From a virus (Duplodnaviria > Heunggongvirae > Uroviricota > Caudoviricetes), in IMG/VR virus record IMGVR_UViG_2606217105_000018, positions 1 to 17,149 of that record: a stretch of 17,149 bases of DNA; one strand, written 5' to 3'. Below, in pieces: positions 1-17,149 of this stretch (positions are counted from its first letter, which is position 1; every line of letters starts with the position of its first letter). The position numbers and the translations under genes are program-made. The notes beneath the pieces are model-generated. The model saw only the letters and a list, made by a program, of their open reading frames with translations. It was not told the DNA's origin and searched no databases.

Positions 1-1194
1 ATGGCGCGCATCACACGCCCCCTCACTAACAACGAGATCCTTAAAGCTAAACCCCGAGAAAAAGATTTCACTCTGCATGATGGGGACGGCCTGTTCTTAC
101 TCGTGAAAACATCTGGTAAAAAGCTCTGGCGCTTCCGATACCAACGTCCGGTAAGTAATAGCCGAACTAATCTGAGTCTCGGCTCATACCCTGCCATTAC
201 ACTCGCAGCTGCTCGCCAGTTACGCGACCAACATTTGGCTACACTCGCGCTGGGGATGGATCCACAACAGCAGCAAGAGCAAGCATCAGAGCAACGTCAG
301 ATTGAGCTGGATAGCATTTTCTCAACTGTCGCCGCCAACTGGTTCAAAATGAAGAGCAAAAGCGTCACTGAGGACTATGCGAAAGATATTTGGCGTTCTC
401 TAGATAAAGACGTATTCCCAGCAATAGGCGCGATACCTGTTCAGGAGATTAAGGCCAGAACGATAGTTGAAGCATTGGAACCAATCAAAGCACGCGGCGC
501 ATTAGAGACTGTTCGTCGCTTGGTCCAGCGCATTAACGAAATAATGATTTATGCAGTCAACACCGGCCTGATTGATGCTAACCCTGCATCAGGTGTTGGA
601 ATGGCATTTGAGAAACCCAAAAAGCAGAACATGCCCACGCTACGACCAGAAGAATTACCTAAGCTGATGCGTTCTTTGGTCATGTCAAACCTATCCGTTC
701 CGACTCGTTGCCTTATTGAATGGCAGCTCCTGACCCTTGTGCGCCCTTCTGAGGCTTCCGGCACTCGATGGGAAGAGATCGATCTCGATGCCAAACTCTG
801 GATGATTCCCGCCGAACGAATGAAGGCTAAGCGAGAACATATTGTCCCATTATCAGCACAAGCATTAGAATTACTTGATACAATGGAACCTATCAGTAAA
901 CATAGGGAGTATGTTTTCCCAAGCAGAAATGATCCTAAAAAAAATATGAATAGTCAGACGGCTAATGCGGCACTTAAACGCATAGGCTATGGTGGGAAAC
1001 TGGTCGCTCACGGATTACGTTCTATAGCAAGTACGGCCATGAACGAACATGGTTGGAATGCTGATATCATTGAATCAGCTCTTGCGCATATTGATAAAAA
1101 TGAAGTTCGTAGAGCATACAACAGGTCAACCTACTTGAGTCAACGGAGAGAGTTGATGAGTTGGTGGGCGGAAATAGTTAAACCAAGTAAGTAG
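1..1194 (+). CDS. intA: P4/CP4-57-type tyrosine integrase (IntA-like)
   Basis: 397-aa ORF. N-terminal block MAR.T.PLT..EI.KAKP...D..L.DGDGL.LL.K.SG.K.W.FRY and C-terminal block HGLRSIAST..NE.G...D.IE.ALAH.D.NEVRRAYNRS.YL.QRR..M.WWA match my recollection of conserved P4-family integrase sequence. The ORF begins at base 1, so any upstream att/tRNA lies outside the window. Confidence 0.9.
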   Translation: MARITRPLTNNEILKAKPREKDFTLHDGDGLFLLVKTSGKKLWRFRYQRPVSNSRTNLSLGSYPAITLAAARQLRDQHLATLALGMDPQQQQEQASEQRQIELDSIFSTVAANWFKMKSKSVTEDYAKDIWRSLDKDVFPAIGAIPVQEIKARTIVEALEPIKARGALETVRRLVQRINEIMIYAVNTGLIDANPASGVGMAFEKPKKQNMPTLRPEELPKLMRSLVMSNLSVPTRCLIEWQLLTLVRPSEASGTRWEEIDLDAKLWMIPAERMKAKREHIVPLSAQALELLDTMEPISKHREYVFPSRNDPKKNMNSQTANAALKRIGYGGKLVAHGLRSIASTAMNEHGWNADIIESALAHIDKNEVRRAYNRSTYLSQRRELMSWWAEIVKPSK

Positions 1195-1202
1195 ATAAAA
1201 TT

Positions 1203-2399
1203 ATGAGCGACTTCGATAGAATTGAGGAATTAGCAGGAGAAGGGGTCTACTCAGGCGTAGAACTCGAAGACGAGATGTCTCAGGATGACAACTCCGACAA
1301 GGAGCCATTCGATACAGATTCAATTTCAATTACTCCTAAGACAGTAGCATTGGATACTGTCTTACGCCGTATAAAAAATAATACAATAAAACTAGCTCCA
1401 GATTTTCAGCGTAGTTATGTTTGGGATAAAAAAAGGAAAAGTCAGTTAATTGAATCAATGATGCTGAAGATTCCATTACCGATGTTTTATGTTTCTGAAG
1501 ATAAAAATGGTGTATGGGAAGTTGTTGATGGATTGCAGCGCCTTACTACTATTAAAGATTTCATTTTAGGACCAGACTATGATGGTAAAGGATTTAAATT
1601 ATCTGGATTAGAGTTCTGGAGCACTCCATATGATGGCTATGATTATTTTAATTTAGAGAAGAATGATGAAAATATAAAAATAATCAATAATATTATGGAG
1701 ACTGAACTATCATTCATCATTATAAACCCTGAAACACCAGAAAAAGTTAAGAGAAATATTTTCAAGAGAATCAACACAGGTGGAATGCGGCTATCAAATC
1801 AAGAGATTAGACATGCGTTATATCAAGGGCGCGCCAGCATACTATTGAAATCCATGGTTGAAAATGATGTTTATAATGATGTTGTAGGTAGAACAGTCAA
1901 AGATGACAGAATGGCTGGTAGAGAGCTTATACTAAGGTATTTAGCTTTTACATTATTCGGCTACAATAATTATTATGGAGATATGGATGATTTTTTATCA
2001 AACACAATGAAAGCTTTAAATAATGAGAAAATTAAAGAACTTCCTTTAATTGATATACCTGAGGATGACGTTATCATTAACACATTCGAATTAGGTTTGC
2101 ACCGAACATATGAGATTTTTGGAGAACATTCTTTTCGAAAATCGTTACCTGGAGATACCAGAAAAACACCCGTTAACAAATCTCTTTTCGAACTATGGTT
2201 GTACTTATTAACAAGAGCTAAAAAAGACTCATATGACGAAATCATCTTGAAAAAAGATATTTTACTGAATGAATATAAAGACCTTCTTCAAAATTATGAG
2301 TTTATGAATTCAATAAGCCGACATGGTGCTGGAGTACAAGGCGCTAAATTTCGTAAAGATTGTCTTTTGGACTTACTAAAGAGAGTAATCAATGCTTGA
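1203..2399 (+). CDS. DUF262 (ParB/Srx-like) domain protein, cargo gene A
   Basis: 398-aa ORF. N-terminal half carries the DUF262 signature as I recall it (FQRSYVW ... IPLPMFYV ... VVDGLQRLTTI ... INTGGMRLSNQEIRHAL). No HNH/DUF1524-like His-Me motif is evident in the C-terminal half. Starts 8 bp after the int stop and overlaps the next gene by 8 bp. Region is strongly AT-rich compared with int. Confidence 0.7.
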   Translation: MSDFDRIEELAGEGVYSGVELEDEMSQDDNSDKEPFDTDSISITPKTVALDTVLRRIKNNTIKLAPDFQRSYVWDKKRKSQLIESMMLKIPLPMFYVSEDKNGVWEVVDGLQRLTTIKDFILGPDYDGKGFKLSGLEFWSTPYDGYDYFNLEKNDENIKIINNIMETELSFIIINPETPEKVKRNIFKRINTGGMRLSNQEIRHALYQGRASILLKSMVENDVYNDVVGRTVKDDRMAGRELILRYLAFTLFGYNNYYGDMDDFLSNTMKALNNEKIKELPLIDIPEDDVIINTFELGLHRTYEIFGEHSFRKSLPGDTRKTPVNKSLFELWLYLLTRAKKDSYDEIILKKDILLNEYKDLLQNYEFMNSISRHGAGVQGAKFRKDCLLDLLKRVINA

Positions 2400-3459
2400 T
2401 GAACTTGTTTTAAAATCATTTAAATCCTTTATCTATTCAAAGTTAGAACTTTCTAACATAACTGTACTCACTGGGCTAAATAGCAGTGGTAAAAGTTCAG
2501 TTCTACAAGCAATAAGAATGTGCAAATTAGTAGATAAAGACCACTCACCATATATTCAAGGATTTGGTGGGTTTACCGATCTCAAATCAAAATTGACCTC
2601 TCAACAAAAGCCTGTGCAGATTCTTCTTTCTAGTAAAGAAATGAAAAATTATCTATATCTATCACTAAGAGAAAATATAAACAAACACAGAACAAGAATA
2701 GATAGGTTTTCGGTAGAATATATCTCAGCTGATAGACATGGTCCATGCGTAACATTACCTATTATGCCTCAGGATATTGATGATATTACTGTTGGTGAAA
2801 AAGGTGAGTACTTTGCAGATTATTACTCAAAATTTGAAAGTGTTATAATACCTGAAAAACTTCGCCATGCTAATTCAACAGGAAATACGTTAAAGCATCA
2901 AATTAATCACTGGATGGGAGAAATATCACCTGGTGTTGATTTGAATTTCTCCGTTACGAAAGAGCAAGATATTTCCCATCTAGGGGTTAATGGTTTCAGA
3001 GCAACTAATACAGGGTTTGGAATAAGTTATTCACTCCCGATCGTGTTAAGTGCATTAGTAATGTCTTCAGAGGCTCCGCTAGATAGCTTCAAGCAGTCAA
3101 AAATGAAAGCATGGCATTCTAATAAAAATAAAATTTTAATAATAGAAAATCCTGAGGCGCATTTGCACCCAAAAGGCCAAACAGCTCTCGGATTATTGTT
3201 AGCTATAGCATCTTCTTGTGGTGTCCAGATAATTGTTGAAACACATAGTGACCATTTTATTGATGGCGTTCGATTAGCAGTCAAAAATGTAGGTGCTACA
3301 CTGGCTCAAAAAAGTATCATTTATTATTTTACGCGTGAGAAAGATAAGGATACAAAAATAGAGAAAATCAGAATAAAAGAAGATGGGAAGCTCACAAGCT
3401 GGCCAGAAGGTTTCTTTGACCAAAGCACAATTAATTTATCTAAATTAGCAAAAAAATAA
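2392..3459 (+). CDS. ABC/AAA_21-type ATPase (DUF3696-like C-terminus), cargo gene B
   Basis: 355-aa ORF. Walker A GLNSSGKSS near the N-terminus; Walker B-like ILIIENPEAHLHP followed by ETHSDHF (H-loop-like) near the C-terminus, typical of small SMC/ABC-like AAA_21 ATPases. The start overlaps the gene A stop (ATGCTTGA). Confidence 0.7.
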   Translation: MLDELVLKSFKSFIYSKLELSNITVLTGLNSSGKSSVLQAIRMCKLVDKDHSPYIQGFGGFTDLKSKLTSQQKPVQILLSSKEMKNYLYLSLRENINKHRTRIDRFSVEYISADRHGPCVTLPIMPQDIDDITVGEKGEYFADYYSKFESVIIPEKLRHANSTGNTLKHQINHWMGEISPGVDLNFSVTKEQDISHLGVNGFRATNTGFGISYSLPIVLSALVMSSEAPLDSFKQSKMKAWHSNKNKILIIENPEAHLHPKGQTALGLLLAIASSCGVQIIVETHSDHFIDGVRLAVKNVGATLAQKSIIYYFTREKDKDTKIEKIRIKEDGKLTSWPEGFFDQSTINLSKLAKK

Positions 3460-3461
3460 AA

Positions 3462-4370
3462 ATGAATATAATCAACTACTTAGATGAAAGATGGGTGGTG
3501 GAGTTATGTGCTAATATTCAAGATAACTCCAAAGAACTTGAGTGTTTCTTAGAATTAGCCGAAGCTGTTAAGAAAAACTGCGGGCGTTCAAGCCTCTCTC
3601 TCACCTCAAATATATGGATAATTAAATGCGGTCACGATAATTTATGTGACATCTTATATGGCCCTTTAACTCAAGATCCTGATTTAAGGGATTACCTTTT
3701 AAGACTGGCAAGAATCATTGATGAAGCTGATAGTTATGAAATAGGCAAACCTGAAACTCACGCATATAACTCAGAAGCTCATGCGGCTTTACACCATAAT
3801 AAGGCAGGAGGCCTTTTATATAAAGAAAATGAAGAATTACCTTGGTGGGATGATAGTTCCATGATATTAATTGACTGCCAAGACAAAATACTTTCTTTAT
3901 TCCGAAAACTTCCTATTTACCACAATATGGGTCTAGACGAATTTGATAGTTATCTAGAGAAATGCTTTCCTAATATATATTTTCTCGATGATGCGAGAGA
4001 TTTTTCTAAAACAGATATTAGCGAAAAAAACGACACAAAACTTTCGGTTATTATAAAGCATTTATCATATCTTAATGATCATGCACAATATGACTACCTT
4101 ATAGATCCAGAACAGTTTGAGCAAAAAGCACTTTCTCATGGTGTAGAACTATCTAGAGAAAGCAGCAGTACAAAACGAAACCAAGATGCAGTTAAAGAAA
4201 GAACAAAAAAAATAAATGAGGAGGCTCTTTTCTTTGAATTACACACCAAACTCAGTAGAGAAAAAGGTAGAATCCATTTTCATATAGGCTCAAGCCTGAG
4301 CGAAAAAATAAATAAATTAAGTGAAGGTCGTCTAATAGTTGGCATTGTGTGCAAACACTTATCAACTTAA
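3462..4370 (+). CDS. hypothetical protein, cargo gene C (no recognisable motif)
   Basis: 302-aa ORF starting 2 bp after the gene B stop; same strand and same low-GC composition as genes A and B. I could not recognise any catalytic motif by eye. Confidence 0.55.
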   Translation: MNIINYLDERWVVELCANIQDNSKELECFLELAEAVKKNCGRSSLSLTSNIWIIKCGHDNLCDILYGPLTQDPDLRDYLLRLARIIDEADSYEIGKPETHAYNSEAHAALHHNKAGGLLYKENEELPWWDDSSMILIDCQDKILSLFRKLPIYHNMGLDEFDSYLEKCFPNIYFLDDARDFSKTDISEKNDTKLSVIIKHLSYLNDHAQYDYLIDPEQFEQKALSHGVELSRESSSTKRNQDAVKERTKKINEEALFFELHTKLSREKGRIHFHIGSSLSEKINKLSEGRLIVGIVCKHLST

Positions 4371-4810
4371 TTAGTACCTCAATATTAAGCTGCCACTTTA
4401 ATCACTCATGATAAGTGGCACCTATTCATTTCAATAAAATTCCCCCTAATAAAAATCAGCACTTTTTTTTCAAATAAATAAATCAGTAACAATATTCACA
4501 TGTATAGCGGCAGAATAATTTTTTCTTAAATATCACACAATCTACATCGTGGGCCGATTTTAATGTAAGAGTACGTGTAAGGATCTAATTTGCAAAGATA
4601 GATTATTGCACGTACACATATAATTCGTTCTAAAATCTATGAGTTGCGATCATGACGCCAATAAGTATGCCTTCACGATGCGAGCCCCCCTCGTCCTGTA
4701 AGTATCCCACATCCCCCTACCTACCAATAACTTGTTGTCACTATTTATAGCTCTCTTGTTTGAATCTCAACAACAACAGTAAAAAATATGCACATTACTG
4801 CTGGCGCGCA

Positions 4811-4829
4811 ATGCTCTCCCCGCCACGCC
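4811..4829 (-). other. cos: cos-like site (P2/P4-type 19-nt cohesive end, about 16/19 match)
   Basis: Reverse complement of ATGCTCTCCCCGCCACGCC is GGCGTGGCGGGGAGAGCAT, compared with the P2/P4 cohesive end GGCGAGGCGGGGAAAGCAC as I remember it. It lies between the int-proximal cargo and psu, where cos sits in a P4 prophage. Confidence 0.4.
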
Positions 4830-4930
4830 TGCCCGCTTAAGAGGTCGCTTTTAATGCAGGTGCATGAACCAACTCAAGCCGCGCCGGTACTGGTGTTGCG
4901 TGGGATAAAAAATACGGGGATTTGCATGCA

Positions 4931-4963
4931 AAACCATGCACCTTATGGATGCATGGTTTTTTT
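4931..4963. terminator. stem-loop with T-tract, probable bidirectional terminator downstream of psu
   Basis: AAACCATGCA (4931-4940) pairs with TGCATGGTTT (4950-4959) around a 9-nt loop, followed by a run of 7 T on the plus strand. On the minus strand the same stem is followed by TTTTG about 40 nt after the psu stop. Confidence 0.45.
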
Positions 4964-5002
4964 CGGGAAAAATAGCGGAATTTTCGGGGATTTTTTTGCG
5001 TG

Positions 5003-5569
5003 CTACCGTGCGGCCAGTTCTGCACGTCGGCGGGGGTAAATCAGGTTCTGTGCCGGGGTGAATTTCTCGCGATTATCATCCCGCGAAGCCGCATCAGGCC
5101 TGAATCCGATGGCCGTTAAAATATCGTTGTCCTGCACGGAATAATTAATTTTTTTACCTGCGGCCAGCCACACCGACAGGGCTTCACGCAGATAATCAAC
5201 CGAGTGCTGCATGGCGCTCTGTTTTACTGCGGGAAGCTGTTCGTTATACCCCATCAGCTCAGGTGCCAGCGTGGCGGCCAGCTCCGCGCCGTGCTGCTGC
5301 ATAAATTCATGGAGCCGGTTGCGGATACTGATGTGCTGCACTTCCTCATGTGAGCGGATATAGCGACCGGCGGCCTGATTAATCTCCCATTTTTTCACGT
5401 CGATATCGTCGCGCAAATCCTGCATTCTGCTCGGGATTTGTTCGTCACCGGCAAGGAGCTGTTCACGGTATTCCCGTTCAAGGTCTGCCAGTTCGGCTTT
5501 ACGTTTCAGCCAGGTATTTTTGTTCGTCTGACAGGCCTCAAAGGCCTGCTGTATGGTCACAGTGGTCAC
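5003..5569 (-). CDS. psu: Psu, polarity suppression protein (P4-type, capsid decoration / Rho antagonist)
   Basis: 188-aa ORF with a GTG start preceded by AGGAG. Blocks QQAF..CQ.NK..W, VNQAAGRYIRSHE.VQHISIR.RL..FMQQHG..LAA.LAPELMGY, INYS.QD.DILT.IGFRPD.AS.DD.REKFTPAQN match my recollection of P4 Psu. Sits directly after delta on the same strand. Confidence 0.85.
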   Translation of the reverse strand: MTTVTIQQAFEACQTNKNTWLKRKAELADLEREYREQLLAGDEQIPSRMQDLRDDIDVKKWEINQAAGRYIRSHEEVQHISIRNRLHEFMQQHGAELAATLAPELMGYNEQLPAVKQSAMQHSVDYLREALSVWLAAGKKINYSVQDNDILTAIGFRPDAASRDDNREKFTPAQNLIYPRRRAELAAR

Positions 5570-5584
5570 GAGTCTCTCTCCTGA

Positions 5585-5824
5585 TTAATGCCGGAACGGC
5601 GAACTGTAGCAGCCCTGCACCTTACGCGGCGGTGGTGGCGCCACCGGCGCGGGGTCGGTTTTCTCCGGGGCGGCACGTATCACACCGTCAACCGACTCGA
5701 TGGTGCGGAAAGTGGCCGAACATTCGATATTGGTACACTGGTGATAACGCTGTTTGACGTTTTCCGACAGATAACGGCTGGTACGGACGTGCGCGGTCTT
5801 TTTGCAGAACGGACAGTGAAACAT
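5585..5824 (-). CDS. delta: Delta/Ogr-family zinc-finger late-gene activator
   Basis: 79-aa ORF MFHCPFC..TAHVRTSRY......RYHQC.N..CSATF with the C-x2-C ... C-x4-C Ogr/Delta zinc-finger pattern. Lies between sid and psu as in P4. Confidence 0.85.
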   Translation of the reverse strand: MFHCPFCKKTAHVRTSRYLSENVKQRYHQCTNIECSATFRTIESVDGVIRAAPEKTDPAPVAPPPPRKVQGCYSSPFRH

Positions 5825-5827
5825 GAT

Positions 5828-6573
5828 TCAGCCCTCTGCCTGTTCGTGGTCTTTTGCGGCCAGTTCAGCGGCAAGCTTCATCCGTCTGGCCGGGCTTCTT
5901 AACAGCGCCATATCAACCCCGGTTATGACCGGGCGATTCATGCCCGTTACGGACAGAACCGGCTCCTGCTCCATATCGAAATGATACAGGGCTGACTGCA
6001 GATTCAGGGCATCGCCCAGCTCGCGGGTCACGGTCGCACGCGGCGAGGTTTCTCCGCTCATTTCCAGCGACCGTATACGCAACAGAAAGGCACGTAACAG
6101 TGCGGGGCTGATACCGGCCAGCACTTTCTTCCATTCGCTGTTGGCGTAAGTGGTGAATGCTTTTTCGTGGGCGCTGATATAAGCCGTACCGGAGGAGCAT
6201 GCGCCAAGCATGGCGAGGCCTTTGTCTTTCTCCAGCTCGGTAATCAGACCGGTGAACTCATCAGCCAGTTCTCGGCTGGCGATACGTTTACTGTGTTCAG
6301 CTTTCAGTTCAGGAGTGAGGTTGCCGCGCAGAGTTCGAAAGCGGCTGCGCCAGTCCTGTTCGGCCTGTGCACTTTCACTGAGCGCGGTCTGTCGTTCCTG
6401 CTCACAACGCTGAATGGAAGCCTCAATGTCGCTGAGTTTACCCATGCTGGCCGTGTGTGCGTCTTTTGCTTCGTTAAGTGCGGCCAGCGCACCGGCAATA
6501 AGTTGTTCCGCGCCTTCATCCTGTTTACTGATAACGGTCTGCATGGCTTTGATAATGAGTTCGGGTTTCATGT
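5828..6573 (-). CDS. sid: Sid-like external scaffold (capsid size determination) protein
   Basis: Ala/Glu-rich, probably coiled-coil, protein immediately upstream of delta-psu on the same strand. I prefer the ATG at 6573 (MKPELI..., GGAG about 8 nt upstream) over the longer ORF starting at 6637, because a TGT-N12-ACA dyad at 6644-6661 would otherwise fall inside the coding region. Confidence 0.65.
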
Positions 6574-6643
6574 TCAGGCTCTCCGTGTGTTCAACCTGAA
6601 ATGATTCTGACGCCTCCTGCACAACAACACGATTCATTGCCGT

Positions 6644-6661
6644 TGTCAGAGTGCTGGCACA
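6644..6661 (-). promoter_or_regulatory. TGT-N12-ACA dyad, candidate Delta/Ogr activator site of a Psid-like late promoter
   Basis: TGTcagagtgctggcACA centred about 80 bp upstream of the proposed sid start. P2/P4 late promoters carry a TGT-N12-ACA element near -55. Such a 6-nt-defined dyad also occurs by chance, so position is the main argument. Confidence 0.3.
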
Positions 6662-6740
6662 AACAGACCTTAAAATCAGGCTGGCCAGAGAAAGGTCGCA
6701 GGAAAACCTTACTCACCGTTTGTTTTTTTACTTATAACTA

Positions 6741-6842
6741 TTCACCACTGTTCACCTTAAATAAAAAGATAAGTAATACAGTAAGTTAAATGGTTAACAG
6801 TTGAAGGTCTGACTGTTCACCGTCTGTTCACCACTGTTCACC
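6741..6842. repeat. cluster of TGTTCACC iterons (P4 ori-like alpha-binding sites)
   Basis: TGTTCACC at 6749-6756, 6814-6821, 6825-6832 and 6835-6842, plus a partial copy at 6741-6748, in the sid/vis divergent intergenic region. This octamer is the P4 type I iteron bound by alpha protein. Confidence 0.6.
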
Positions 6843-6924
6843 CTCCTGTTTTGCTCTGGTTATAGCATTTAGACTTTATTTTGATTAAAAATGAAAAATA
6901 TATAACTAAAAGCAATAGAAATTG

Positions 6925-6984
6925 CTGCATTGTAATGCAGTGATTTGCATATGTTTGCCAGCGTTTGCCATTGTTTGCCAGAGC
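6925..6984. promoter_or_regulatory. palindrome TGCATTGTAATGCA followed by three direct GTTTGCCA repeats upstream of the vis-like gene
   Basis: The sequence TGCATTGTAATGCAgtgatttgcatatGTTTGCCAgcGTTTGCCAttGTTTGCCAgag can be read directly. It lies about 130-180 bp upstream of the 7109 start, so it is a candidate operator for the early/late switch. Confidence 0.3.
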
Positions 6985-7108
6985 GAAAAGTCAATGTTTG
7001 TTTCCCCGAAAATCTCACATGACCTGAGGAAAAATATAGACATAATAAGGAGCTACCCGAAGCCGGACGGACACGACCGGCACTGTATGGACTTTGTGAG
7101 GTAGCCCG

Positions 7109-7375
7109 ATGCACACTGCTTTTTCTTCCCCGTCTTCTGCCCCTGCCGCGCCGCTGATGCCGGTTTCTGATACCGTTCACGAGCGCTTTATCCGTCTGCC
7201 CGAAGTGATGCATCTGTGCGGCCTGTCCCGCTCGACCATTTACGACCTCATCAGCCGGGAAGCCTTCCCGAAACAAATCTCCCTCGGCGGAAAAAATGTG
7301 GCGTGGGCGCAGTCTGAAATCACTGCATGGATGGCGGATCGCATTGCCGAACGTAACCGGGGCTATGACGCATGA
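7109..7375 (+). CDS. alpA: AlpA/Vis-family excisionase-like transcriptional regulator
   Basis: 88-aa ORF. Core [55 protein letters not shown] is a typical AlpA-family helix-turn-helix. GAGG lies about 9 nt before the ATG at 7109; an alternative start at 7157 is possible. Confidence 0.8.
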
Positions 7376-7728
7376 TGATGACCATTCAGCAAACAGCCCC
7401 TTTTTCTGGCTTGCTTCTTTTCGCCGTTTCCAGGTATAGTTTTCCCGCTGTCGCAAAATCGGCAGCCGGGCGTAGGAACCCGAGTTACTCAATGGCGACA
7501 CCGGACGCGCCATGCGTCTTTTTTTACGTCGTTGCTCAGGCACACCCATTTTTCGGGCTGTGGTGTTTACACCTTAGCCCCTGTCAGATAATGGTGATCC
7601 GGGCGGGGCAGCCTTCGGGCTGGCCGGTATTCATTGAGGCCGGTATTCCTACCCCCGTTCGGGTCACCACCCATGAGCGTAGGAACTCCGGTGGTGGCAA
7701 TAACCGCTACTCAATGGAGGTTGCCACT
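7376..7728 (+). ncRNA. candidate P4-type immunity RNA / leader region with repeated complementary boxes
   Basis: GCGTAGGAAC occurs at 7471-7480 and 7676-7685; TACTCAATGG at 7486-7495 and 7709-7718; the complementary GTTCCTAC-like box (ggtattcctaccc) at about 7640-7652. This resembles the seqA/seqB/seqC arrangement of the P4 cI RNA system. Exact RNA ends are not determinable by eye. Confidence 0.25.
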
Positions 7729-7923
7729 ATGGCTACGACCCTCACCCCGTCACACCCGCAATTTGTCTTTGTGTTTGCTGCTGTTCGTCGCGCAGACCGT
7801 ACCCCTCGTATTTGTATGCTCCGCACCGTTGCCGGTGATGAGCACGCCGCACGCCTTTCTCTCGTTCGCGATTACGTTCTCTCGTTTGCTGGCCGTCTGC
7901 CGGTTGCGGAGGTTCGCGCATGA
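7729..7923 (+). CDS. small hypothetical protein of the satellite early operon
   Basis: ATG at 7729 with GGAGG 8 nt upstream; 64 codons ([16 protein letters not shown]...). Its stop overlaps the next start (ATGA). This is the only protein-like part of the long 7372..7923 ORF. Confidence 0.3.
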
Positions 7924-8147
7924 GACACACCACCATTACCGCCCGTGACCTCGAATGTCTGGAGCATATGCGCAATGTCGGCCAGCTCGTCAATGAGCTG
8001 ATGCAGGTGCAGGACTGCGCCACCGTTCGTCGTGACCCGGCGCAGCAGTTACAGCTCACCTCCGTGATTTACCTCATGACCGCCCAGCTCGACGGCGTGG
8101 TCGAACGCTGCAATCAGCAGTGGCTGACCGGGGAGGGTAACGCATGA
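7920..8147 (+). CDS. hypothetical protein, satellite early operon
   Basis: 75-aa ORF with ATGA overlaps at both ends (translational coupling), same strand, directly upstream of the alpha operon genes. Occupies the slot where P4 epsilon would lie, but I cannot confirm identity. Confidence 0.5.
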
Positions 8148-8464
8148 AACAGCCATTACCGCCCGTATTACGCGCCGCGCTGTATCGTCGCGCCGTGGCC
8201 TGTGCATGGCTGACCCTGTGCGAACGCCAGCACCGCTACCCGCACCTCACCCTCGACGCGCTGGAAAGCGCCATTGCCGCCGAGCTGGAGGGCTTTTACC
8301 TGCGCCAGCACGGCGAGGAAAAAGGTCGCCAGATTGCCTGTGCACTGCTGGAAGATTTAATGGAAGCCGGACCACTCAAAGCCGCGCCGTCGCTGTCCTT
8401 TTTCGGGCTGGCCGTGATGGATGAGCTTTGCGCCCGTCATATCACCGCACCGGCACTGCACTGA
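8144..8464 (+). CDS. hypothetical protein, satellite early operon
   Basis: 106-aa ORF, start overlapping the previous stop (ATGA), ending 15 bp before the alpha start. Confidence 0.5.
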
Positions 8465-8478
8465 GGGAGAAAATAACT

Positions 8479-10812
8479 ATGAAAATGAACGTAACGGAAA
8501 CCGTAAAACAGGCGTGCGGTCACTGGCCGCGCATTCTCCCTGCGCTGGGTGTGAAGGTGATTAAAAACCGCCATCAGGCCTGTCCGGTGTGTGGCGGCTC
8601 TGACCGTTTCCGCTTTGACGATAAAGAAGGGCGCGGGACGTGGTTCTGCAATCAGTGTGGCGCAGGTGACGGGCTTAAGCTGGTAGAGAAAGTGTTTGGC
8701 GTGACCCCGTCAGAAGCTGCCGGGAAGGTGAACGCCGTGACCGGCAATCTGTCGCCGGTTGCCCCGGAAGTGATTGCGGCCGCAGAGGCTGAAACCGATG
8801 CCGATCGCAAAGCGGCGGCCGAGCTGGCCGCGAAACTGATGGAGAAAACCCGACCGGCCACCGGCAACGCCTACCTCACCCGCAAGGGCTTCCCCGCTCT
8901 GGAATGTCTGACGCTCACCGTCATGCATAAAACCGGCGGCGTGACGTTCCGCGCCGGGGATGTGGTTGTCCCGCTGTATGACGATACCGTCGCACTGGTT
9001 AACCTTCAGCTTATCAATGCTGACGGTCTCAAACGCACCCTGAAAGGCGGTCAGGTCAAAGGGGCATGTCATATCATCGAAGGGAAAAAACAGGCCGGAA
9101 AACGCCTGTGGATTGCAGAGGGTTATGCGACCGCACTCACCGTGCATCACCTGACCGGGGAAACCGTCATGGTGGCGCTGTCCTCCGTGAACCTCCTTTC
9201 TCTGGCGAGCCTTGCCCGTCAGAAATATCCGGCCTGTCAGATTGTGCTCGCTGCCGACCGTGACCTTAACGGCGACGGCCAGAGTAAAGCCGCTGCGGCC
9301 GCAGATGCCTGTGAGGGCATTGTTGCCCTGCCGCCGGTGTTCGGTGACTGGAATGATGCGTTTATACAGTACGGCGAGGAGGCCACGCGCAAGACTATTT
9401 ATGACGCCATCCGGCCACCGGCGCAAAGCCCATTCGACACCATGAGCGAGGCGGAATTTACCGCCATGAGCGCCAGCGACAAGGCTTTGCGGGTGCATGA
9501 GCATTACGGTGAAGCGCTGGCGGTGGATGCGAACGGCCAGCTCCTGTCCCGCTATGAAAACGGCATCTGGAAAAATATCCCTGCCGCCACTTTTTCACGG
9601 AATGTGGCTGATTTATTCCAGCGCTTACGCGCCCCGTTCTCGTCCGGGAAAATTGCCTCGGTGGTGGAGACCCTGAAACTGATTATTCCGCAGCAGGATA
9701 CACCGGCGCGCCGTCTGATTGGCTTTCGCAACGGGGTACTCGATACTCAAAGCGGCGTATTCAGCCCGCACCACAAATCGCACTGGCTGCGCACATTGTG
9801 CGATGTGGATTTCACCCCGCCGGTGGAGGGGGAAACGCTGGAGACGCACGCGCCGAACTTCTGGCGCTGGCTCGACCGTGCAGCCGGTAAAAATCCACAA
9901 AAACGCGACGTGATTCTGGCTGCGCTGTTTATGGTGCTGGCGAACCGTTACGACTGGCAGCTCTTTCTCGAAGTGACCGGTCCCGGCGGGAGTGGCAAAA
10001 GTATTCTGGCTGAAATCGCGACCCTGCTCGCCGGAGAGGATAACGCCACGTCAGCCGATATCGACACACTGGAAGACCCGCGCAAGCGTGCCTCCCTGAT
10101 TGGCTTCTCGCTTATCCGTCTGCCTGACCAGGAAAAATGGAGCGGTGACGGCGCAGGACTCAAGGCCATCACCGGCGGCGATGCAGTTTCAGTTGACCCG
10201 AAATACCAGAATCCGTACTCAACGCATATTCCGGCGGTGATTCTGGCCGTGAACAATAACCCCATGCGCTTCACCGACCGCAGCGGCGGTGTGTCACGCC
10301 GCCGGGTGATTATTCACTTCCCGGAACAGATTGCCCCGGAGGAACGCGACCCGCAGCTCAGGGATAAAATTGCGCGCGAGCTGGCCGTCATTGTGCGCCA
10401 GCTTATGCAGAAATTCAGCGACCCGATGACCGCACGCGCACTGCTTCAGTCGCAGCAGAACTCCGACGAGGCGCTCAGCATTAAGCGCGATGCTGACCCG
10501 ACATTTGATTTTTGCGGCTATCTGGAAATGCTCCCGCAGACCAACGGGATGTTTATGGGGAATGCCAGCATCATCCCGCGGAATTATCGTAAATATCTCT
10601 ATCACGCGTATCTGGCCTATATGGAGGCCAACGGCTACAGAAACGTGCTCAGCCTGAAAATGTTCGGGCTGGGGCTGCCCATGATGCTGAAAGAGTACGG
10701 CCTGAATTATGAGAAGCGGCACACCAAGCAGGGGATACAGACCAATCTGTCGCTGAAAGAGGAAAGCTACGGCGACTGGCTGCCGAAGTGCGACGAACCC
10801 GCAGCAACATAA
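8479..10812 (+). CDS. alpha: Alpha-type primase-helicase (zinc-binding primase, TOPRIM, D5-like helicase)
   Basis: N-terminal CPVCGG...FCNQCG zinc-binding motif, a primase region, and Walker A GPGGSGKS in the C-terminal helicase part. ATG at 8479 has a strong GAGGGAGA Shine-Dalgarno and gives 777 aa, the size I recall for P4 alpha. The ORF-track start at 8428 lacks a ribosome-binding site and overlaps the preceding gene. Confidence 0.9.
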   Translation: MKMNVTETVKQACGHWPRILPALGVKVIKNRHQACPVCGGSDRFRFDDKEGRGTWFCNQCGAGDGLKLVEKVFGVTPSEAAGKVNAVTGNLSPVAPEVIAAAEAETDADRKAAAELAAKLMEKTRPATGNAYLTRKGFPALECLTLTVMHKTGGVTFRAGDVVVPLYDDTVALVNLQLINADGLKRTLKGGQVKGACHIIEGKKQAGKRLWIAEGYATALTVHHLTGETVMVALSSVNLLSLASLARQKYPACQIVLAADRDLNGDGQSKAAAAADACEGIVALPPVFGDWNDAFIQYGEEATRKTIYDAIRPPAQSPFDTMSEAEFTAMSASDKALRVHEHYGEALAVDANGQLLSRYENGIWKNIPAATFSRNVADLFQRLRAPFSSGKIASVVETLKLIIPQQDTPARRLIGFRNGVLDTQSGVFSPHHKSHWLRTLCDVDFTPPVEGETLETHAPNFWRWLDRAAGKNPQKRDVILAALFMVLANRYDWQLFLEVTGPGGSGKSILAEIATLLAGEDNATSADIDTLEDPRKRASLIGFSLIRLPDQEKWSGDGAGLKAITGGDAVSVDPKYQNPYSTHIPAVILAVNNNPMRFTDRSGGVSRRRVIIHFPEQIAPEERDPQLRDKIARELAVIVRQLMQKFSDPMTARALLQSQQNSDEALSIKRDADPTFDFCGYLEMLPQTNGMFMGNASIIPRNYRKYLYHAYLAYMEANGYRNVLSLKMFGLGLPMMLKEYGLNYEKRHTKQGIQTNLSLKEESYGDWLPKCDEPAAT

Positions 10813-10860
10813 CCTCACTCAGACCGGCAACAGCCGGTCTTTTCCTTTCTGGCCATTGCC

Positions 10861-11152
10861 ACAGGGTGAACAATCCACTGTTCACCCTTCACCGTATATT
10901 CACCCTGTATCACCATGAAATTATTGATAAAAAACCAGAGGTGAACAGTGTGAACAGTAAAACCTGAAAAAACTTTTTATCACCCCTCACATCGCCTGAG
11001 CGGACGGTTCCAGAACGAGCACAAATCACAAAGGTGAAGAGTCGACTGTTCACTCTTCACCAACCGTTCACCACTTATCATTCTGATATTAAAAAGAAAA
11101 ATAACGAGGTGAACAGTGTGAACAGTTAAATGCAAAAAAACTTTTTTTCAAT
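10861..11152. repeat. crr-like region: two direct repeats of about 110 bp, each carrying TGTTCACC/GGTGAACA iterons
   Basis: Repeat 1 is about 10873-10985 and repeat 2 about 11041-11152. Each has ctgttcac.cttcacc..., then gaggtgaacagtgtgaacagt, then an A6-8CTTTTT element. This matches the published description of the P4 cis replication region downstream of alpha. Confidence 0.6.
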
Positions 11153-11458
11153 GCTCATTGTTTAAGAAAAAAAGACCACATGAAAAAGGTGGCACATTTC
11201 TAAAGAGGGATCGTATTACTATGACATTTCATAATTGGTACACGTTTAGGTACACAACTGAAAGTTGAATACGGAAAAATCCTTTACATTTAATATATTA
11301 AGAAATTTATTCAGACTCCGCCAGCCCACCAATCATGATTGGACGGTGTAAGGACAACACCAACAAAAACAGGAAGTTAGCAGTCTCAGCAGGACACCGA
11401 CCAGACGGTGAGGAGACAAAAAAGGATACGCAAAGGAGCCGCGGCTCTCGAGTGACAC

Positions 11459-11490
11459 AAAAGCCCGCTTATGCGGGCTTTTTGTTTTTC
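11459..11490 (+). terminator. rho-independent terminator
   Basis: AAAGCCCGC-TTAT-GCGGGCTTT perfect hairpin followed by TTGTTTTTC, about 70 bp upstream of the endonuclease gene. Confidence 0.5.
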
Positions 11491-11559
11491 CCTTAAGTTC
11501 CTAGCCGCTTATCTATAACTATGGAAAAATGTTAACCCTGACTGTATGTTAACAAAGGG

Positions 11560-12774
11560 ATGTATATGTCGGTTTTTCATAACTGGCTGCTTGATATCGC
11601 AAGCGGGAATTACTTTATCTACATCAAACGCCTTTCTGCAAACGACACAGGCGCAACAGGTGGCCATCAGGTCGGACTTTATATCCCCTCAAATATCGTT
11701 GAAAAGCTTTTTCCATCTATCAATCATACTCGCGAACTGAACCCTTCAGTCTTCCTTACTGCGCATGTATCATCCCATGATTGCCCTGATACCCAAGCAC
11801 GCGCAATTTATTACAACAACCGTTATTTTGGTAAGACCCGAAACGAAAAAAGAATTACGCGCTGGGGGAGAGGAAGTCCATTACAGAACCCTGAAAATAC
11901 AGGAGCCCTCACAATTCTTGCTTTCAGGTTAAACGAACAGAACACTGACTGTTCCGAGGTAGATATATGGGTCTGCGTCAATCCCGATGAAGAGGATATC
12001 ATCGAGTCTGCTATTGGCGAAATCATACCTGGAACCCTAATTTCCGGCCCTGCCGGACAAATTTTGGGCGGATTGTCTCTTCAGCAAACTCCAGTAAATC
12101 ATAAATATGTTATTCCTGAAGACTGGAAGAAGCGTTTTCCTTCTGGAAACGAAATTATTCAATATGCTGCTGGCCATTATGCTAAAAACTCCAAGGATCC
12201 AGATGAGCAACTGATTGACCGTCGGCGTGTCGAGTATGATATTTTTCTACTCGTCGAGGAATTACATGTTCTTGATATTATTAAGAAAGGATTCGATTCT
12301 GTAGATGAGTTTATTGCATTAGCCAACTCTGTCAGTAATCGACGTAAATCAAGGGCAGGCAAATCACTTGAACTTCACCTAGAGAAGCTTTTTATCGAGC
12401 ACGGACTACGGCATTTCTCCACTCAGGCAGTTACTGAAGGTAATAAAAAACCAGATTTCCTGTTTCCTTCAGCAGAGGCATATCATAACGTTGAATTTCC
12501 TGTAGAAAACTTACGTATGCTGGCAGTAAAGACCACCTGCAAAGATCGCTGGCGTCAGATACTGAATGAAGCAGATAAAATCCATCAGGTACATTTATTT
12601 ACACTGCAAGAAGGTGTTTCTTCAGCACAATACCGAGAAATGAAAGATGCGGGTGTCAGACTCGTTGTACCATCAACTTTACATAAAAAATACCCAGAAG
12701 CAGTTAGAGAAGAATTAATAACGCTCGGAGCATTCATTACTGAGCTGATAGAGCTTTACGCTGAACTATCATAG
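11560..12774 (+). CDS. ecoRIIR: Type IIE restriction endonuclease, EcoRII family (CCWGG)
   Basis: ORF of 404 aa from 11560, or 402 aa from the ATG at 11566 which has better AAGGGA spacing. The sequence matches my recollection of R.EcoRII; size and convergent pairing with a Dcm/M.EcoRII-like methyltransferase support the call. Confidence 0.8.
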   Translation: MYMSVFHNWLLDIASGNYFIYIKRLSANDTGATGGHQVGLYIPSNIVEKLFPSINHTRELNPSVFLTAHVSSHDCPDTQARAIYYNNRYFGKTRNEKRITRWGRGSPLQNPENTGALTILAFRLNEQNTDCSEVDIWVCVNPDEEDIIESAIGEIIPGTLISGPAGQILGGLSLQQTPVNHKYVIPEDWKKRFPSGNEIIQYAAGHYAKNSKDPDEQLIDRRRVEYDIFLLVEELHVLDIIKKGFDSVDEFIALANSVSNRRKSRAGKSLELHLEKLFIEHGLRHFSTQAVTEGNKKPDFLFPSAEAYHNVEFPVENLRMLAVKTTCKDRWRQILNEADKIHQVHLFTLQEGVSSAQYREMKDAGVRLVVPSTLHKKYPEAVREELITLGAFITELIELYAELS

Positions 12775-12779
12775 GCTGA

Positions 12780-12802
12780 CTCCCGGCTTAAAAGGCCGGG
12801 AG
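12780..12802. terminator. inverted repeat between the convergent R and M genes (weak bidirectional terminator candidate)
   Basis: CTCCCGGC-ttaaaag-GCCGGGAG lies between the R stop (12774) and the M stop (12809). No clear T-tract on either side. Confidence 0.3.
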
Positions 12803-12808
12803 ATGTTC

Positions 12809-14242
12809 TCAAGGCTGCCCAGTCTTACCAGCATCAGCAGAAACAGCTTTGAGGATATAGGGTTCCAGAAGTCTGGCAACAGCTTCAAATACTGGCACCA
12901 CAACTGAGTTACCGAACTGCCGATATGACTGAGTATCTGAAACCGGAATACGGAATGGTTTCCCTCCAGGTTTTTCAAATCCCATAAGGCGTGCGCACTC
13001 TCGGGGAGTCAGCCTGCGTGGTCGACGAGCCTGATTACTCTCATTCATAAAGTCAGCCTCTCCCGTTGCCATATCCCAACCACGATCAATAAGAATTTCT
13101 GATCCGTCTTTGTGATATCTGGCAGAAAGTGTGCGTGCAATGCTTTCCTTATTCTCAGGATTGACCAACCCAAAGCCAAAACCATTCCCCTTGGCTGCAT
13201 GCTTTTTGGCGTAGTTATAAAGGTACTCCCATAGTTTTGGCGTAAGTATATATTTACTGTCGACTACAGGCTCCAGCAATTCACCAAATGATGGGCGGTG
13301 TTCCGGATAAAAACGACTGATATCACGCAAGGTAAACCCCTTGTGAATATTCAGATCTCGTCTAAATCCGACCAGAACAATACGTTCACGATGCTGAGGC
13401 AAAAAATGCTTCCCATCGATAATCTTTGGATCGTTTTTTCCCATTTCTGCAGCATCGGCAACTTCGTAGCCCAGCTCGTCAAGGGTCTCCATAATGACTT
13501 TGAAAGTTTTACCCTTATCATGGCTCTTCAGATTTTTGACATTTTCCAGCACAAAAATTGCCGGTTTTTTTGCTCGTATAATACGTGCCACGTCAAAAAA
13601 AAGTGTTCCTTGTGCTTCACATTCAAAACCATGCGCACGACCAAGTGAGTTTTTCTTACTAACACCAGCAAGGCTAAATGGCTGGCACGGGAACCCCGCA
13701 AGAAGCACATCATGATCCGGCACATGCTCATCAATATATGCATAAGCATCCGTTTCCAATACATCGGTTTTATCACTCAGCGTGACTTCCCGAATATCGA
13801 GATTGAATTTATGCACCTGTTCATCGTTAAACCAGTTGGCCTTGTATGTACGCACAGCATCTTTATTCCATTCACTGGTAAAAACACACTGGCCTCCAAT
13901 GGCCTCAAAACCTTTCCGTATCCCTCCAATTCCAGCAAATAAGTCAATGAAGCGGAAAGCATATTCCGGATGGTTTGCAGGTGGTTCTGGTAGCATCTTA
14001 CGCAGAAGAGACTCTTCTACTGAAGTCAACGATTTTGGTAAACACTTGCCATTAATCCAGCGGTTAATGGTTTCACGGCTCCACTCATTTTTTCCGACTT
14101 TTCTCAGTAATTCAGCCACATACTTCTGATCATAGATTTCCAGCACTTTCTCGATAAGCTTTTTATCATTTTCCTGTCGCAGCTTTTCTTCCGCCTCGGC
14201 TTCCTTCAGCAGATGCTGTGCCAACACTTCAAATTCAGACAT
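12809..14242 (-). CDS. ecoRIIM: C5-cytosine DNA methyltransferase, Dcm/M.EcoRII family (CCWGG)
   Basis: Motif [18 protein letters not shown], the catalytic [11 protein letters not shown] (PC motif) and ENVKNL (motif VI). Starting at the internal ATG 14242 (MSEFEVL..., GGAGG 7 nt upstream) gives 477 aa, the size I recall for M.EcoRII. The ORF-track start at 14284 has no ribosome-binding site. Confidence 0.9.
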
Positions 14243-14603
14243 AATTCCTCCAAGGGGTCTAATGGGTGAAACTTTATCACTCATTCAACCCAGAAGGAAA
14301 TGTTTTATCTGGATATTTAAACAGTGACTACAACGTAATCTAGCACTGGTGATGCTTTGTTAGGCATAGAGAATCATTCTATATACGACTAATGACAGAA
14401 AAACAGCAGACAAGTAGTTTGTTCATAAATTAACGCATACTATGTGTCTACGGTTTTCGAGACCGGTCCAATCATCAAACGAAACATAAAATTAGCTCAC
14501 ATTATGAGGAAAAGTATCTTTTTTGTACTATGTAAATTCAAAGGCTTAGCCTCATTTCTCCGATGGTTTTCTCAACACTACTGGTTGTGAGCCCTTGCAA
14601 TGA

Positions 14604-15422
<819 letters not shown>

Positions 15423-15441
15423 GTCTTTAAGTGATAAGCAT

Positions 15442-15490
15442 AAACCGCAGCACGTCATGCATACGTCGTGTCTGCGGTTTTTCTTTTTTG
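15442..15490 (+). terminator. rho-independent terminator after the GIY-YIG gene
   Basis: AAACCGCAG ... CTGCGGTTT stem enclosing a smaller palindromic loop, followed by TTTTTCTTTTTTG. Confidence 0.5.
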
Positions 15491-15491
15491 C

Positions 15492-16076
15492 TTACACGGT
15501 GTCTGGTTCTTCTGGCCACTCAATATCCGGTGCAGTTGATGTATCAACACGGTTCAGCAACACCCGATACTTTTTCCAGGCTTCCAGCAATGAGGTTTCT
15601 TCCTCCGTTGCGATTTCCAGATCTACAGCATCCTGAAGTGGCGCAATATGCTCACTGGCTACCTGCATCAGGCTGTTTTTTGTTTCTTCTGCCTCCCGGA
15701 TCCGGAACAGTTTTTCTGCTTCCGTATCCTTCACCCAGGCTGTGCCGTTCCACTTCTGATATTCCCCTCCCGGCGACAACCAGGTAACATTTTCCGGTAA
15801 CGGACCGAGTTCAGAAATAAATAACGCGTCGCCGGAAGCCACGTCATAAACCGTTTTACCCCGATGGTCTTCAACGAGATGCCACGATGCCTCATCACTG
15901 TTGAAAACAGCCACGAAGCCTGCCGGAATATCTGGTGGTGCAATATCGGTACTGTTTGCTGGCAGACCTGTATGAGGCGGAATATATGCGTCACCTTCAC
16001 CAATAAATTCATTAGTTCCGGCCAGCAGATTATAAATTTTTATGGTCCGTGCTTGTTCACTCATTCTGAATGCCAT
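15492..16076 (-). CDS. tfa: tail fibre assembly protein (Tfa family chaperone)
   Basis: 194-aa [50 protein letters not shown]..., a typical lambdoid Tfa N-terminus. Its ATG overlaps the upstream tail-fibre stop (TAATG). Confidence 0.85.
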
Positions 16077-17149
16077 TATGCAAGCCTCACAATATAGTTA
16101 AATGCGATGTTTTTGACGGTGTTTTCCGCGTTACCAGCAGCGTTAACGGTGATGGTGTGTCCATGTGAACCAATCGCAACGGAGTGCGTATGAGCACCAA
16201 TACCGACAGTATGCGCGTGTGCACCTGCAGATGCTGCTGTGCCGGACAGTGAATGGCTATGATTACCATCTGTACTGGTATTCGCTAACCACCCCGTAGA
16301 CATACCTACTGAGCCTTGTACACCCCAGGTATTTTGACCTGAGCTTGTATAACCATATTGATAAGTATCTTTAAAAACACTGGGGTTAAATCGACGGCCA
16401 TCTCTATGGCTGTGATTACCAGCTGCATTCGTGCTGCCACTTAAACTATGGGTATGCGCACCAGTGTTATTCGTGGATTTAGTGCCGTAATCAAACGACG
16501 ATGTGGTTTTCGTCCCCAAATCCGTACTGGATGCGCTGGCGCTGTGGGTGTGCGATTTAATACCGTCCTGTTCCTGAGACAAGCAGACCTCGCTGCTGCG
16601 CTGGCCTGTTCAGTGGCTTCGCCAGCCTTCGTTGTGGCTGTTGAAGCAGACGATGCGGCACTTTCTGCCGATTTTCCGGCGGCGGTGGCACTGGCTGAGG
16701 CCTGCCCGGCACTTGTTGACGCGGCACTGGCAGACGACGCAGCCGCTGTTTTTGAGCCTGCCGCAGCCGAGGCGCTCTGTCCCGCTGCCGTTTCAGAAGA
16801 CCTGGCGTTTGTCTCAGACGTCTTTGCCGCCTTCGCGGAATTGCCTGCCGCCGTTGCCGAGGAAGCGGCACTACTGGCGCTTGATGATGCGTTCGTTTCT
16901 GATGATTTCGCTGCCTCTTTTGAGGCCGCCGCATCCCGGGCTGAGGTGGCTGCTTCTGACGCCTTCGTGGTCGCGGCGGATGCAGAAGTGGCTGCTGATT
17001 GTTGTGACGCTGCCGCATTCGTTTCTGACGTTTTCGCCGCAGCGGCACTGGTAGCTGCCGCGCTTTTTGAGGACTCTGCAGCGGCAGCACTTTTTGATGC
17101 TTCAGTGGCCTTTGTTGATGCCGTTCCTGCGCTGGAAGACGCTGACTGA
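16076..17149 (-). pseudogene. stf: side tail fibre protein, partial at window edge and apparently frameshifted
   Basis: The C-terminal 168 codons (16076-16582) carry H-x-H repeats ([28 protein letters not shown]) and end in [15 protein letters not shown]. The region 16583-17149 is open in a different minus-strand frame that encodes a Ser/Ala/Thr-rich repeat with recurring KTSETNA units, typical of a tail-fibre N-terminal shaft. The two frames overlap only between about 16460 and 16611. Confidence 0.5.

Follow-up and report, generated by a model that had tools for sequence, protein, structure and literature searches.

The satellite P4 integrates at the leuX tRNA gene, and CP4-57, a cryptic prophage of Escherichia coli K-12 reported to have a P4-type integrase adjoining the transfer-messenger RNA (tmRNA) gene ssrA, is larger and degraded, and is not known to retain the psu-delta-sid-alpha genes as an intact set. 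CP4-57 is linked to ssrA, and its excision is controlled by AlpA (Kirby et al. 1994, cited in PMC8628076). The gene content and gene order of the P4-like family have been described in detail (PMC8628076), and P4-like satellites with a swappable defence cargo beside the cohesive-end site, cos, are reported in ~44% of E. coli isolates (PMC9122126); elements of this kind are very common, thoroughly described and already known. The stretch of DNA analysed here, the 17,149 nt of IMG/VR record IMGVR_UViG_2606217105_000018 (“the window” in what follows), very probably holds, at positions 1-11339, a P4-like phage satellite (“Type A”) in its prophage form, short of ~189 nt at its left end. The host chromosome is of the E. 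coli type, with the satellite integrated beside ssrA. Within the P4-like family the satellite is unremarkable and looks intact, yet it is not P4 itself. Gene content and order, gene integrity, the cis-acting and att sites, size, and the identity of cos with that of P2-like phages are read directly from the DNA; every activity, mobilisation included, is predicted from them.

Assignment to the P4-like family

The published definition of P4-like satellites names seven markers (PMC8628076), all of which were found, full length and in canonical order, which places the element in “Type A”. They are the integrase (PF00589, E 1.2e-32, profile positions 2-169 of 172), Psu (PF07455, E 1.8e-87, full profile), Delta (PF04606, Ogr_Delta, E 8.6e-21), Sid, AlpA (PF05930, E 3e-20), the marker called “epsilon” (PF10554, Phage_ASH, E 1.2e-29, on the open reading frame (ORF) 7372-7923) and alpha (PF03288, Pox_D5, E 1.7e-16); the Sid marker of the definition is a custom profile of its authors, for which blastp to P4 Sid, the PDB entry 7JW1_E and PHROG 6165 served as substitutes. 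The ORF map and the collinear alignment to P4 put the markers less than 10 genes apart in canonical order. On the functional side, cos is shared with P2-like helper phages, and the genome is small enough for the small capsid of ~12 kb determined by Sid (capacity as quoted in PMC9122126): measured from att core to att core it is 11,514 bp long, the left 189 nt being borrowed from a 99.8%-identical relative (L006), and P4 for comparison has 11,624 bp.

P4 itself (NC_001609, L001) served as the reference. Megablast to P4 gave a coverage of 28%, which understates the homology; by more sensitive blastn and protein comparison, DNA similarity of 72-81% extends over five blocks (4804-5556, 6621-6843, 7031-7531, 7602-7913 and 8147-11147), and the alignment is collinear rather than scattered, as the original prediction of a P4-type satellite had implied, with homologues of eight P4 proteins in the same order. 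Common to both genomes are the succession int, cargo, cos, psu-delta-sid, ori, vis, leader with cI RNA, ORF106, alpha, crr and att, as well as TGTTCACC iterons, a pair of crr repeats, a dyad at the position of P_sid and a 19-nt cos of the P2 type; the sizes are similar (11.5 kb here, 11.6 kb in P4). The parts that the original prediction listed were each found at or near the place where it had put them, with statistics far above chance. Its claim of a full P4 parts list stands for the seven markers and their canonical order, but has to be qualified in other respects: epsilon and orf151 are found in P4 only, an extra 75-aa gene is present here, Delta is a single-domain protein of 79 aa and not the 166-aa double-domain protein of P4, Int is only 36% identical to its P4 counterpart, and the target is ssrA. 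Furthermore, cos differs at 3/19 positions, and the place of gop, beta and cII of P4 is taken here by the cargo, a predicted Menshen system.

With “Type A” elements in general (PMC8628076; PMC9122126, PMC13586616) the satellite shares the architecture, the position of defence cargo between int and psu beside cos, and the occurrence of the 75-aa family and the ORF106 (cnr) family between Ash and alpha. Integration at ssrA and a regulator of the AlpA family are likenesses to CP4-57.

Integration site and limits of the element

The features that define the ends of the element are:

1-1194, plus strand: int, ssrA-specific tyrosine integrase of 397 aa, with Pfam domains Arm-DNA-bind_3, Phage_int_M and Phage_integrase (E 1e-32)
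11237-11255, plus strand: presumed arm-type repeats of the integrase, GGTACAC twice within AATTGGTACACGTTTAGGTACAC
11315-11339, plus strand: attR, ACTCCGCCAGCCCACCAATCATGAT, an imperfect copy of the ssrA 3′ end, aligned to attL of L006 and to the empty site of L003

The similarity of Int to P4 Int is significant in spite of the low identity (blastp E 4e-87); the motifs VRPSE, HGLR, AH and the C-terminal Y are readable in the translation, and the length of 397 aa recurs in the relative L002 (96% identity in the backbone, 88% in int) and in the loci L005-L010. The latter were retrieved by way of NsnC, the product of the third cargo gene, which many public assemblies encode in identical form. Of the six retrieved loci, five (L005-L009) have smpB-ssrA directly upstream and match positions 1-11486 of the window at 99.8% identity; the sixth, L010, is 99.6% identical and has a second integrase gene ahead of int.

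ARAGORN found no tRNA or tmRNA gene inside the window; the tmRNA gene sits upstream of base 1 and was located only via the relatives. From the 99.8%-identical copies we infer that attL and ssrA lie just upstream of base 1, and the boundary model leads us to expect there an att core of the form CCACCA(A)ATCATGAT together with GGTACAC arm repeats. At the right end the att core, CCACCAATCATGAT, occupies 11326-11339. The attL form in L006 reads ...ACTCCCGCCAGCTCCACCAAATCATGAT, and the attB form, from an unoccupied site in strain NADC1036 (L003), reads ...CTCCACCAATCATGATTGGACGG; the attB core and the right flank of L003 are identical to the window from 11326 on. The two GGTACAC motifs belong to a 23-nt repeat at 11233-11255, and the same 23-mer and an inverted copy of it are present between ssrA and int in L006; by analogy to the arm repeats of P4, which occur on both sides of its attP, the motifs may be binding sites of the arm type for the integrase.

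​The limits first proposed, 1-11152, thus need revision at both ends. The right end of that span, at crr, stops ~190 nt short of the true one, attR being at 11315-11339; and position 1 is the ATG of int, not the end of the element, with attL and ssrA upstream of the window. The att direct repeat and the tRNA or tmRNA gene that had been anticipated in the flanks were both found, the former as the attR copy of the ssrA 3′ end and the latter, in the relatives, as ssrA, which in L006 ends 183 nt ahead of the int ATG.

The cos site and helper compatibility

4811-4829, minus strand: cohesive-end 19-mer of cos, GGCGTGGCGGGGAGAGCAT, 16/19 bases matching the P4 end

The 19-mer is contained in a 192-nt alignment across the P4 cos junction (73% identity), and the conserved cos region, ~4804-4995, matches P2-like phages. 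The exact 19-mer was found on 108 IMG/VR contigs, mostly P4-like satellites, and on at least 17 contigs of P2-like phages it adjoins gpQ, the portal gene. On the P2-like contig L031, which has the 19-mer, there are genes for a capsid protein of the P2 family, the scaffold gpO, the terminase gpP, the portal gpQ and gpA. Since the 19-mer is common to P2-like phages with packaging genes, compatible packaging machinery exists in nature; and since the cos end is identical on at least 17 contigs of such phages, it is plausible, judging from sequence, that a P2-like helper with the same cos could mobilise the satellite.

At 7067-8953 of L031, in the cos-proximal slot between gpQ and gpA, a 628-aa DUF7380 protein is encoded; this gene is probably that phage's own hotspot cargo. 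In the window, an ORF at 4788-5039 (plus strand) that overlaps cos was rejected as a gene: it is without family hits, and its conservation in tblastn reflects conservation of the DNA.

Late operon and replication functions

The genes and sites for capsid modification, late activation and replication are:

5003-5569, minus strand: psu (polarity suppression, capsid decoration), 188 aa, Pfam Psu (E 1.8e-87), PDB 3RX6 (E 3e-73)
5585-5824, minus strand: delta, single-domain Ogr/Delta zinc-finger activator of late genes, 79 aa, Pfam Ogr_Delta (E 8.6e-21)
5828-6571, minus strand: sid (scaffold for capsid size determination), 247 aa, identity to P4 Sid 29% (blastp E 6e-26)
6644-6661, unstranded: TGT-N12-ACA dyad upstream of sid, at a position homologous to the P4 dyad 9493-9510
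6749-6842, plus strand: ori with four type-1 iterons TGTTCACC, aligning to P4 ori 9309-9533
6953-6980, plus strand: three GTTTGCCA repeats at a spacing of 10 bp
8479-10812, plus strand: alpha primase-helicase, 777 aa, 85% identical to P4 alpha over residues 1-774
10821-10840, plus strand: alpha terminator, a stem-loop with T run, corresponding to the talpha site of P4
10865-10989 and 11033-11157, plus strand: crr, two direct repeats of ~125 nt

Psu is 62% identical to P4 Psu. Delta, which has the same length of 79 aa in the relatives, aligns to both halves of P4 Delta. Sid is further matched by PDB 7JW1_E (“Size determination protein Sid”, E 3e-22) and by PHROG 6165 (E 2e-78); its ATG at 6571 lines up with the sid start of P4 and with the annotation of L002, the longest ORF extending to 6637. 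The dyad upstream of sid is presumed, by analogy to P4, to be the Ogr/Delta-responsive activator site of P_sid; the pattern TGT-N12-ACA occurs 4 times in the window versus 4.0 expected, which is not above chance, so the argument for P_sid rests on position.

Against an expected 0.47, the window has 8 copies of the iteron TGTTCACC, none of which lies outside ori and crr. The GTTTGCCA repeats are taken as the counterpart of the “ori type 2” repeats, which are annotated in P4 as three tandem 10-bp repeats at 9176-9205. The domains of alpha are Zn_Ribbon_Prim, Toprim_3, D5_N, DUF5906 and Pox_D5, and its motifs, EGYATA at 214, GPGGSGKS (Walker A) at 501 and the zinc motifs CPVC and CNQC, occupy positions identical to those in P4. 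The two crr copies, 74% identical to each other at a spacing of 168 and each with TGTTCACC iterons, align to P4 crr 4291-4590. An ORF on the minus strand at 6869-7549, which overlaps vis, is not regarded as a gene; no family hits were obtained for it, and its tblastn conservation likewise mirrors that of the DNA.

Early region, immunity RNA and the place of epsilon

Between ori and alpha the following were found:

7109-7375, plus strand: vis/alpA (excisionase and transcription regulator), 88 aa, Pfam Phage_AlpA (E 3e-20)
7372-7923, plus strand: orf183, Ash/Icd-like ORF of 183 aa, Pfam Phage_ASH (E 1.2e-29), overlapping the immunity RNAs
7434-7524, plus strand: early leader, an IsrK-like RNA with seqA box at 7467-7478, Rfam isrK at 7447-7524 (70.9 bits, gathering 50)
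7587-7674, plus strand: cI/C4-type immunity antisense RNA with seqB at 7640-7657, Rfam C4 (RF01695, clan CL00128; 81.3 bits, gathering 45, E 6e-15)
7920-8147, plus strand: orf75, a 75-aa protein absent from P4, PHROG 10110 (E 3e-46)
8144-8464, plus strand: orf106 (DUF5375), homologue of P4 ORF106, Pfam DUF5375 (E 7e-65), 91% identical to P4 ORF106

Over its whole length of 88 aa, Vis shares 70% identity with P4 Vis, and orf106 is taken as the cnr gene. The genes vis, orf183, orf75 and orf106 are coupled in series, the stop codon of one overlapping the start codon of the next by 4 nt (at 7372, 7920 and 8144). The target boxes of the leader score 45.7 bits with Rfam c4-a1b1 (7434-7486), just below the gathering score of 46.7, and seqA is followed by an intrinsic terminator (7503-7519 and a T run). 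SeqA at 7467-7478 is 92% complementary to 7646-7657 in seqB, and 7640-7652 in seqB is 85% complementary to seqC at 7679-7691, downstream of the C4 RNA; by these predicted pairings the boxes around the C4 RNA have the seqA/seqB/seqC arrangement of P4 immunity, the cI RNA of P4 being taken as a member of the C4 family. The product of orf183 is 73% identical to P4p10, the “cI ORF”. This ORF spans the leader RNA, the terminator and the whole cI/C4 RNA, and gene callers disagree on its start (143 aa in L005).

In P4 (region 7888-8584) it is this cI ORF that is hit by Phage_ASH, PF10554, while the true derepression protein epsilon belongs to PF25738; hence elements scored as having epsilon by PF10554 may lack a real epsilon, as does this satellite. 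The place of epsilon and orf151 in P4 is occupied here by orf75, for which no Pfam, PADLOC or PDB (solved-structure) hit was obtained. Members of the 75-aa family have been found in 61% of P4-like elements (PMC8628076). An hhalign comparison of orf75 with epsilon gave a probability of 0.5%, and that with orf151 was also negative, though with profiles this shallow (Neff ~1.5) remote homology is possible. Among 79 loci that have both the cos 19-mer and orf106, 67 carry the 75-aa gene only, all three of epsilon, orf151 and orf75 occur in 8, and 4 carry only epsilon and orf151, so that orf75 is present in 75/79; lack of epsilon is therefore the norm in the relatives, not a lesion. The 8 loci with all three genes argue that orf75 is not a simple replacement of epsilon. 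That orf75 encodes a factor which manipulates the helper, such as an anti-repressor acting on those P2-like phages that have repressors not bound by P4 epsilon, is a conjecture to which we give little credence.

Integrity of the backbone genes

No internal stop codons are present in int, psu, delta, sid, vis, alpha or the other listed genes, and the backbone genes have equal lengths in L002, the sole exception being a one-codon difference in orf183. The ratio of nonsynonymous to synonymous substitution rates (dN/dS) was computed against L002 for nine genes:

int: 0.10
psu: 0.32
delta: 0.10
sid: 0.10
vis: 0.00
orf183: 0.59, the highest of the backbone genes
orf75: 0.58
orf106: 0.16
alpha: 0.06

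The raised value of orf183 fits its overlap with the immunity RNAs. The earlier statement that no core frame is obviously disrupted is thereby upheld: alpha, sid, delta, psu, int and vis do not differ in length from their counterparts in the relatives, and their dN/dS is 0-0.32.

The Menshen cargo

The slot between int and psu beside cos, a described defence hotspot of P4-like satellites (PMC9122126, PMC13586616), holds three genes:

1203-2399, plus strand: cargo gene 1, NsnA (DUF262/GmrSD_N), 398 aa, PADLOC NsnA (E 8.6e-123 over 13-397), Pfam GmrSD_N (E 4e-28)
2392-3459, plus strand: cargo gene 2, NsnB (ABC-type ATPase and DUF3696), 355 aa, PADLOC NsnB (E 1.6e-99, full length), Pfam AAA_15, AAA_21 and DUF3696
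3462-4370, plus strand: cargo gene 3, NsnC (predicted effector), 302 aa, PADLOC NsnC (E 2.5e-124 over 1-302)

The genes abut or overlap and form one operon on the ORF map; from its sequence the cargo at 1203-4370 is a predicted Menshen (NsnABC) anti-phage system. The three-gene operon is the same as that described for Menshen, where NsnA is expected to have DUF262 and NsnB to combine an ABC ATPase with DUF3696 (PMC12065111); both are present here (the former as DUF262/GmrSD_N), and NsnC is matched by PADLOC over its full length. The GC content of the cargo is 34%, versus 55% for the backbone, which points to a foreign, low-GC origin. Apart from the cos-proximal 50 nt, the cargo DNA (window 1150-4830) was not matched by megablast in any of 5,426 complete E. 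coli genomes, and no close relatives of NsnC were confirmed in one-genome-per-species representative genomes; the identical NsnC is indexed in 376 blocks of draft and metagenome assemblies and occurs in the same satellite context on many public assemblies.

The neighbouring prophage

Positions 11340-17149 lie outside the satellite and consist of a short flank from downstream of ssrA followed by the end of a lambdoid prophage:

11560-12774: EcoRII-type restriction enzyme (EcoRII-N and EcoRII-C)
12809-14284, minus strand: cytosine-5 methyltransferase, divergent to the restriction enzyme
14649-15422: PD-T4-3 / LEM-3-like GIY-YIG protein (PADLOC E 8e-140)
15492-17149, minus strand: tail-fibre assembly and tail-fibre genes of the lambdoid prophage

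The window from 11310 to 17149 is 99.9% identical to the DNA after ssrA in NADC1036, where the satellite is absent, and the restriction-modification (RM) and PD-T4-3 block (11560-15422) also follows a different P4-like satellite in strain AR_0013. As the block is found behind a bare ssrA and behind another satellite, automated delimiters could wrongly assign it to the satellite. Given the lambdoid genes in the right flank, the ssrA locus holds the satellite and a non-helper prophage in tandem, the lambdoid neighbour not being a helper of the P2 type.

Where the window has the lambdoid prophage, L005-L009 have ypjA behind the same satellite. The flanks diverge at a terminator hairpin 3′ of attR (11450-11486), with the lambdoid prophage here and ypjA in other strains; compared with L002 (16195-16237) the hairpin has paired changes, gcccgcttatgcgggc versus gcccacagatgtgggc. 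Within the tail-fibre assembly gene there is a full-length match to Rfam IS009 (15535-15733, minus strand, 229 bits, gathering 117), and weak isrG-like matches, well below the gathering score, are found at 16683-17062.

Proposed mode of life and alternative readings

If the satellite behaves as P4 does, lysogeny would be maintained by the cI/C4-type RNA, which would pair with seqA and seqC of the early leader and cause termination before alpha. In the presence of a P2-like helper, Delta and the Ogr protein of the helper would activate the sid-delta-psu operon and the late genes of the helper; Vis/AlpA and Int would excise the satellite, and alpha would replicate it from ori and crr. Sid would then shrink the helper capsid, which Psu would decorate, and the helper terminase would cut and package the 11.5-kb genome at the P2-type cos, the Menshen system in the int-psu slot presumably travelling with it.

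Several observations weigh against reading the element as an intact satellite of this kind. Sid is only 29% identical to P4 Sid and Delta has a single domain, and the fit to a P2-like helper is predicted; no helper is visible in the window, the neighbouring prophage being lambdoid. No homologue of P4 epsilon (PF25738) or orf151 was found by blastp or, in other frames, by tblastn, so waking of a resident P2 prophage in the manner of P4 is not evident. Upstream of vis, where P4 has an activator dyad at what we take to be the P_LL position, the exact pattern gave no match. AttL, the int promoter and the left arm sites are outside the window and are deduced from the near-identical relatives; and vertical descent, not transfer, could account for the near-identical copies at a single place in the chromosome.

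Some of these points are shared by the main rival, according to which the element is a cryptic or domesticated P4-like prophage in the manner of CP4-57, with its frames intact, excision or packaging lost, and kept for the benefit of Menshen to the host; this we consider unlikely. It would accommodate the absence of epsilon, but 67/79 loci sharing the cos 19-mer are likewise without it. Left of its core attR differs from ssrA by single-base gaps; this part, however, is the element's own (attP), and in the 14-bp core there is no difference from attB. That all near-identical copies sit at the same ssrA site and that no helper is in view also speak for a cryptic prophage, whereas the genes of the satellite lifestyle (sid, psu, delta, alpha and vis) are full length at dN/dS of 0-0.32, extant P2-like phages have the identical cos, ori and crr are intact, as is the immunity RNA, and the size suits the small capsid. 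Purifying selection on satellite-specific genes and intact cis sites thus disfavour it.

It is very improbable that the satellite extends past 11339 and includes the EcoRII-type RM and PD-T4-3 genes (11560-15422) as a second cargo slot between primase and att. A minor defence hotspot at that place has been reported, with 7% of systems (PMC13586616), and the same RM genes stand behind a further P4-like variant (L004) as well; yet the att core at 11326-11339 precedes them, in NADC1036 the same 5.8 kb come directly after ssrA (99.9% identity) with no satellite, ypjA takes their place behind the satellite in L005-L009, and an extra 4 kb would bring the genome to ~15.7 kb, above the capsid limit of ~12 kb. 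Finally, a different integrative island such as a phage-inducible chromosomal island (PICI), merely sharing with P4 the int, alpA and primase-helicase genes that are also typical of enterobacterial PICIs, can be dismissed almost entirely, as a PICI would be expected to have no psu/sid/delta module and to bring its own capsid-redirection or packaging genes, while psu, sid, the Ogr/Delta gene, a P2-type cos, P4-type ori and crr iterons and a C4/cI RNA are all present here, collinear with P4.

Significance

For an apparently intact P4-like satellite of a well-described kind the significance beyond annotation is small, and the practical points are the true limits of the element, the ownership of the RM and PD-T4-3 genes and the vehicle of the cargo. 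The limits are now fixed, with attL at ssrA just upstream of base 1 and attR at the right end, and the RM and PD-T4-3 genes belong to the neighbouring lambdoid prophage and are not satellite cargo. Should orf75 prove to be a factor that manipulates the helper, the textbook activation of the helper by P4 would be a minority solution in its own family. As to the cargo, Menshen rides on an apparently transfer-competent vehicle, and its transfer between strains by a P2-like phage of identical cos is plausible.

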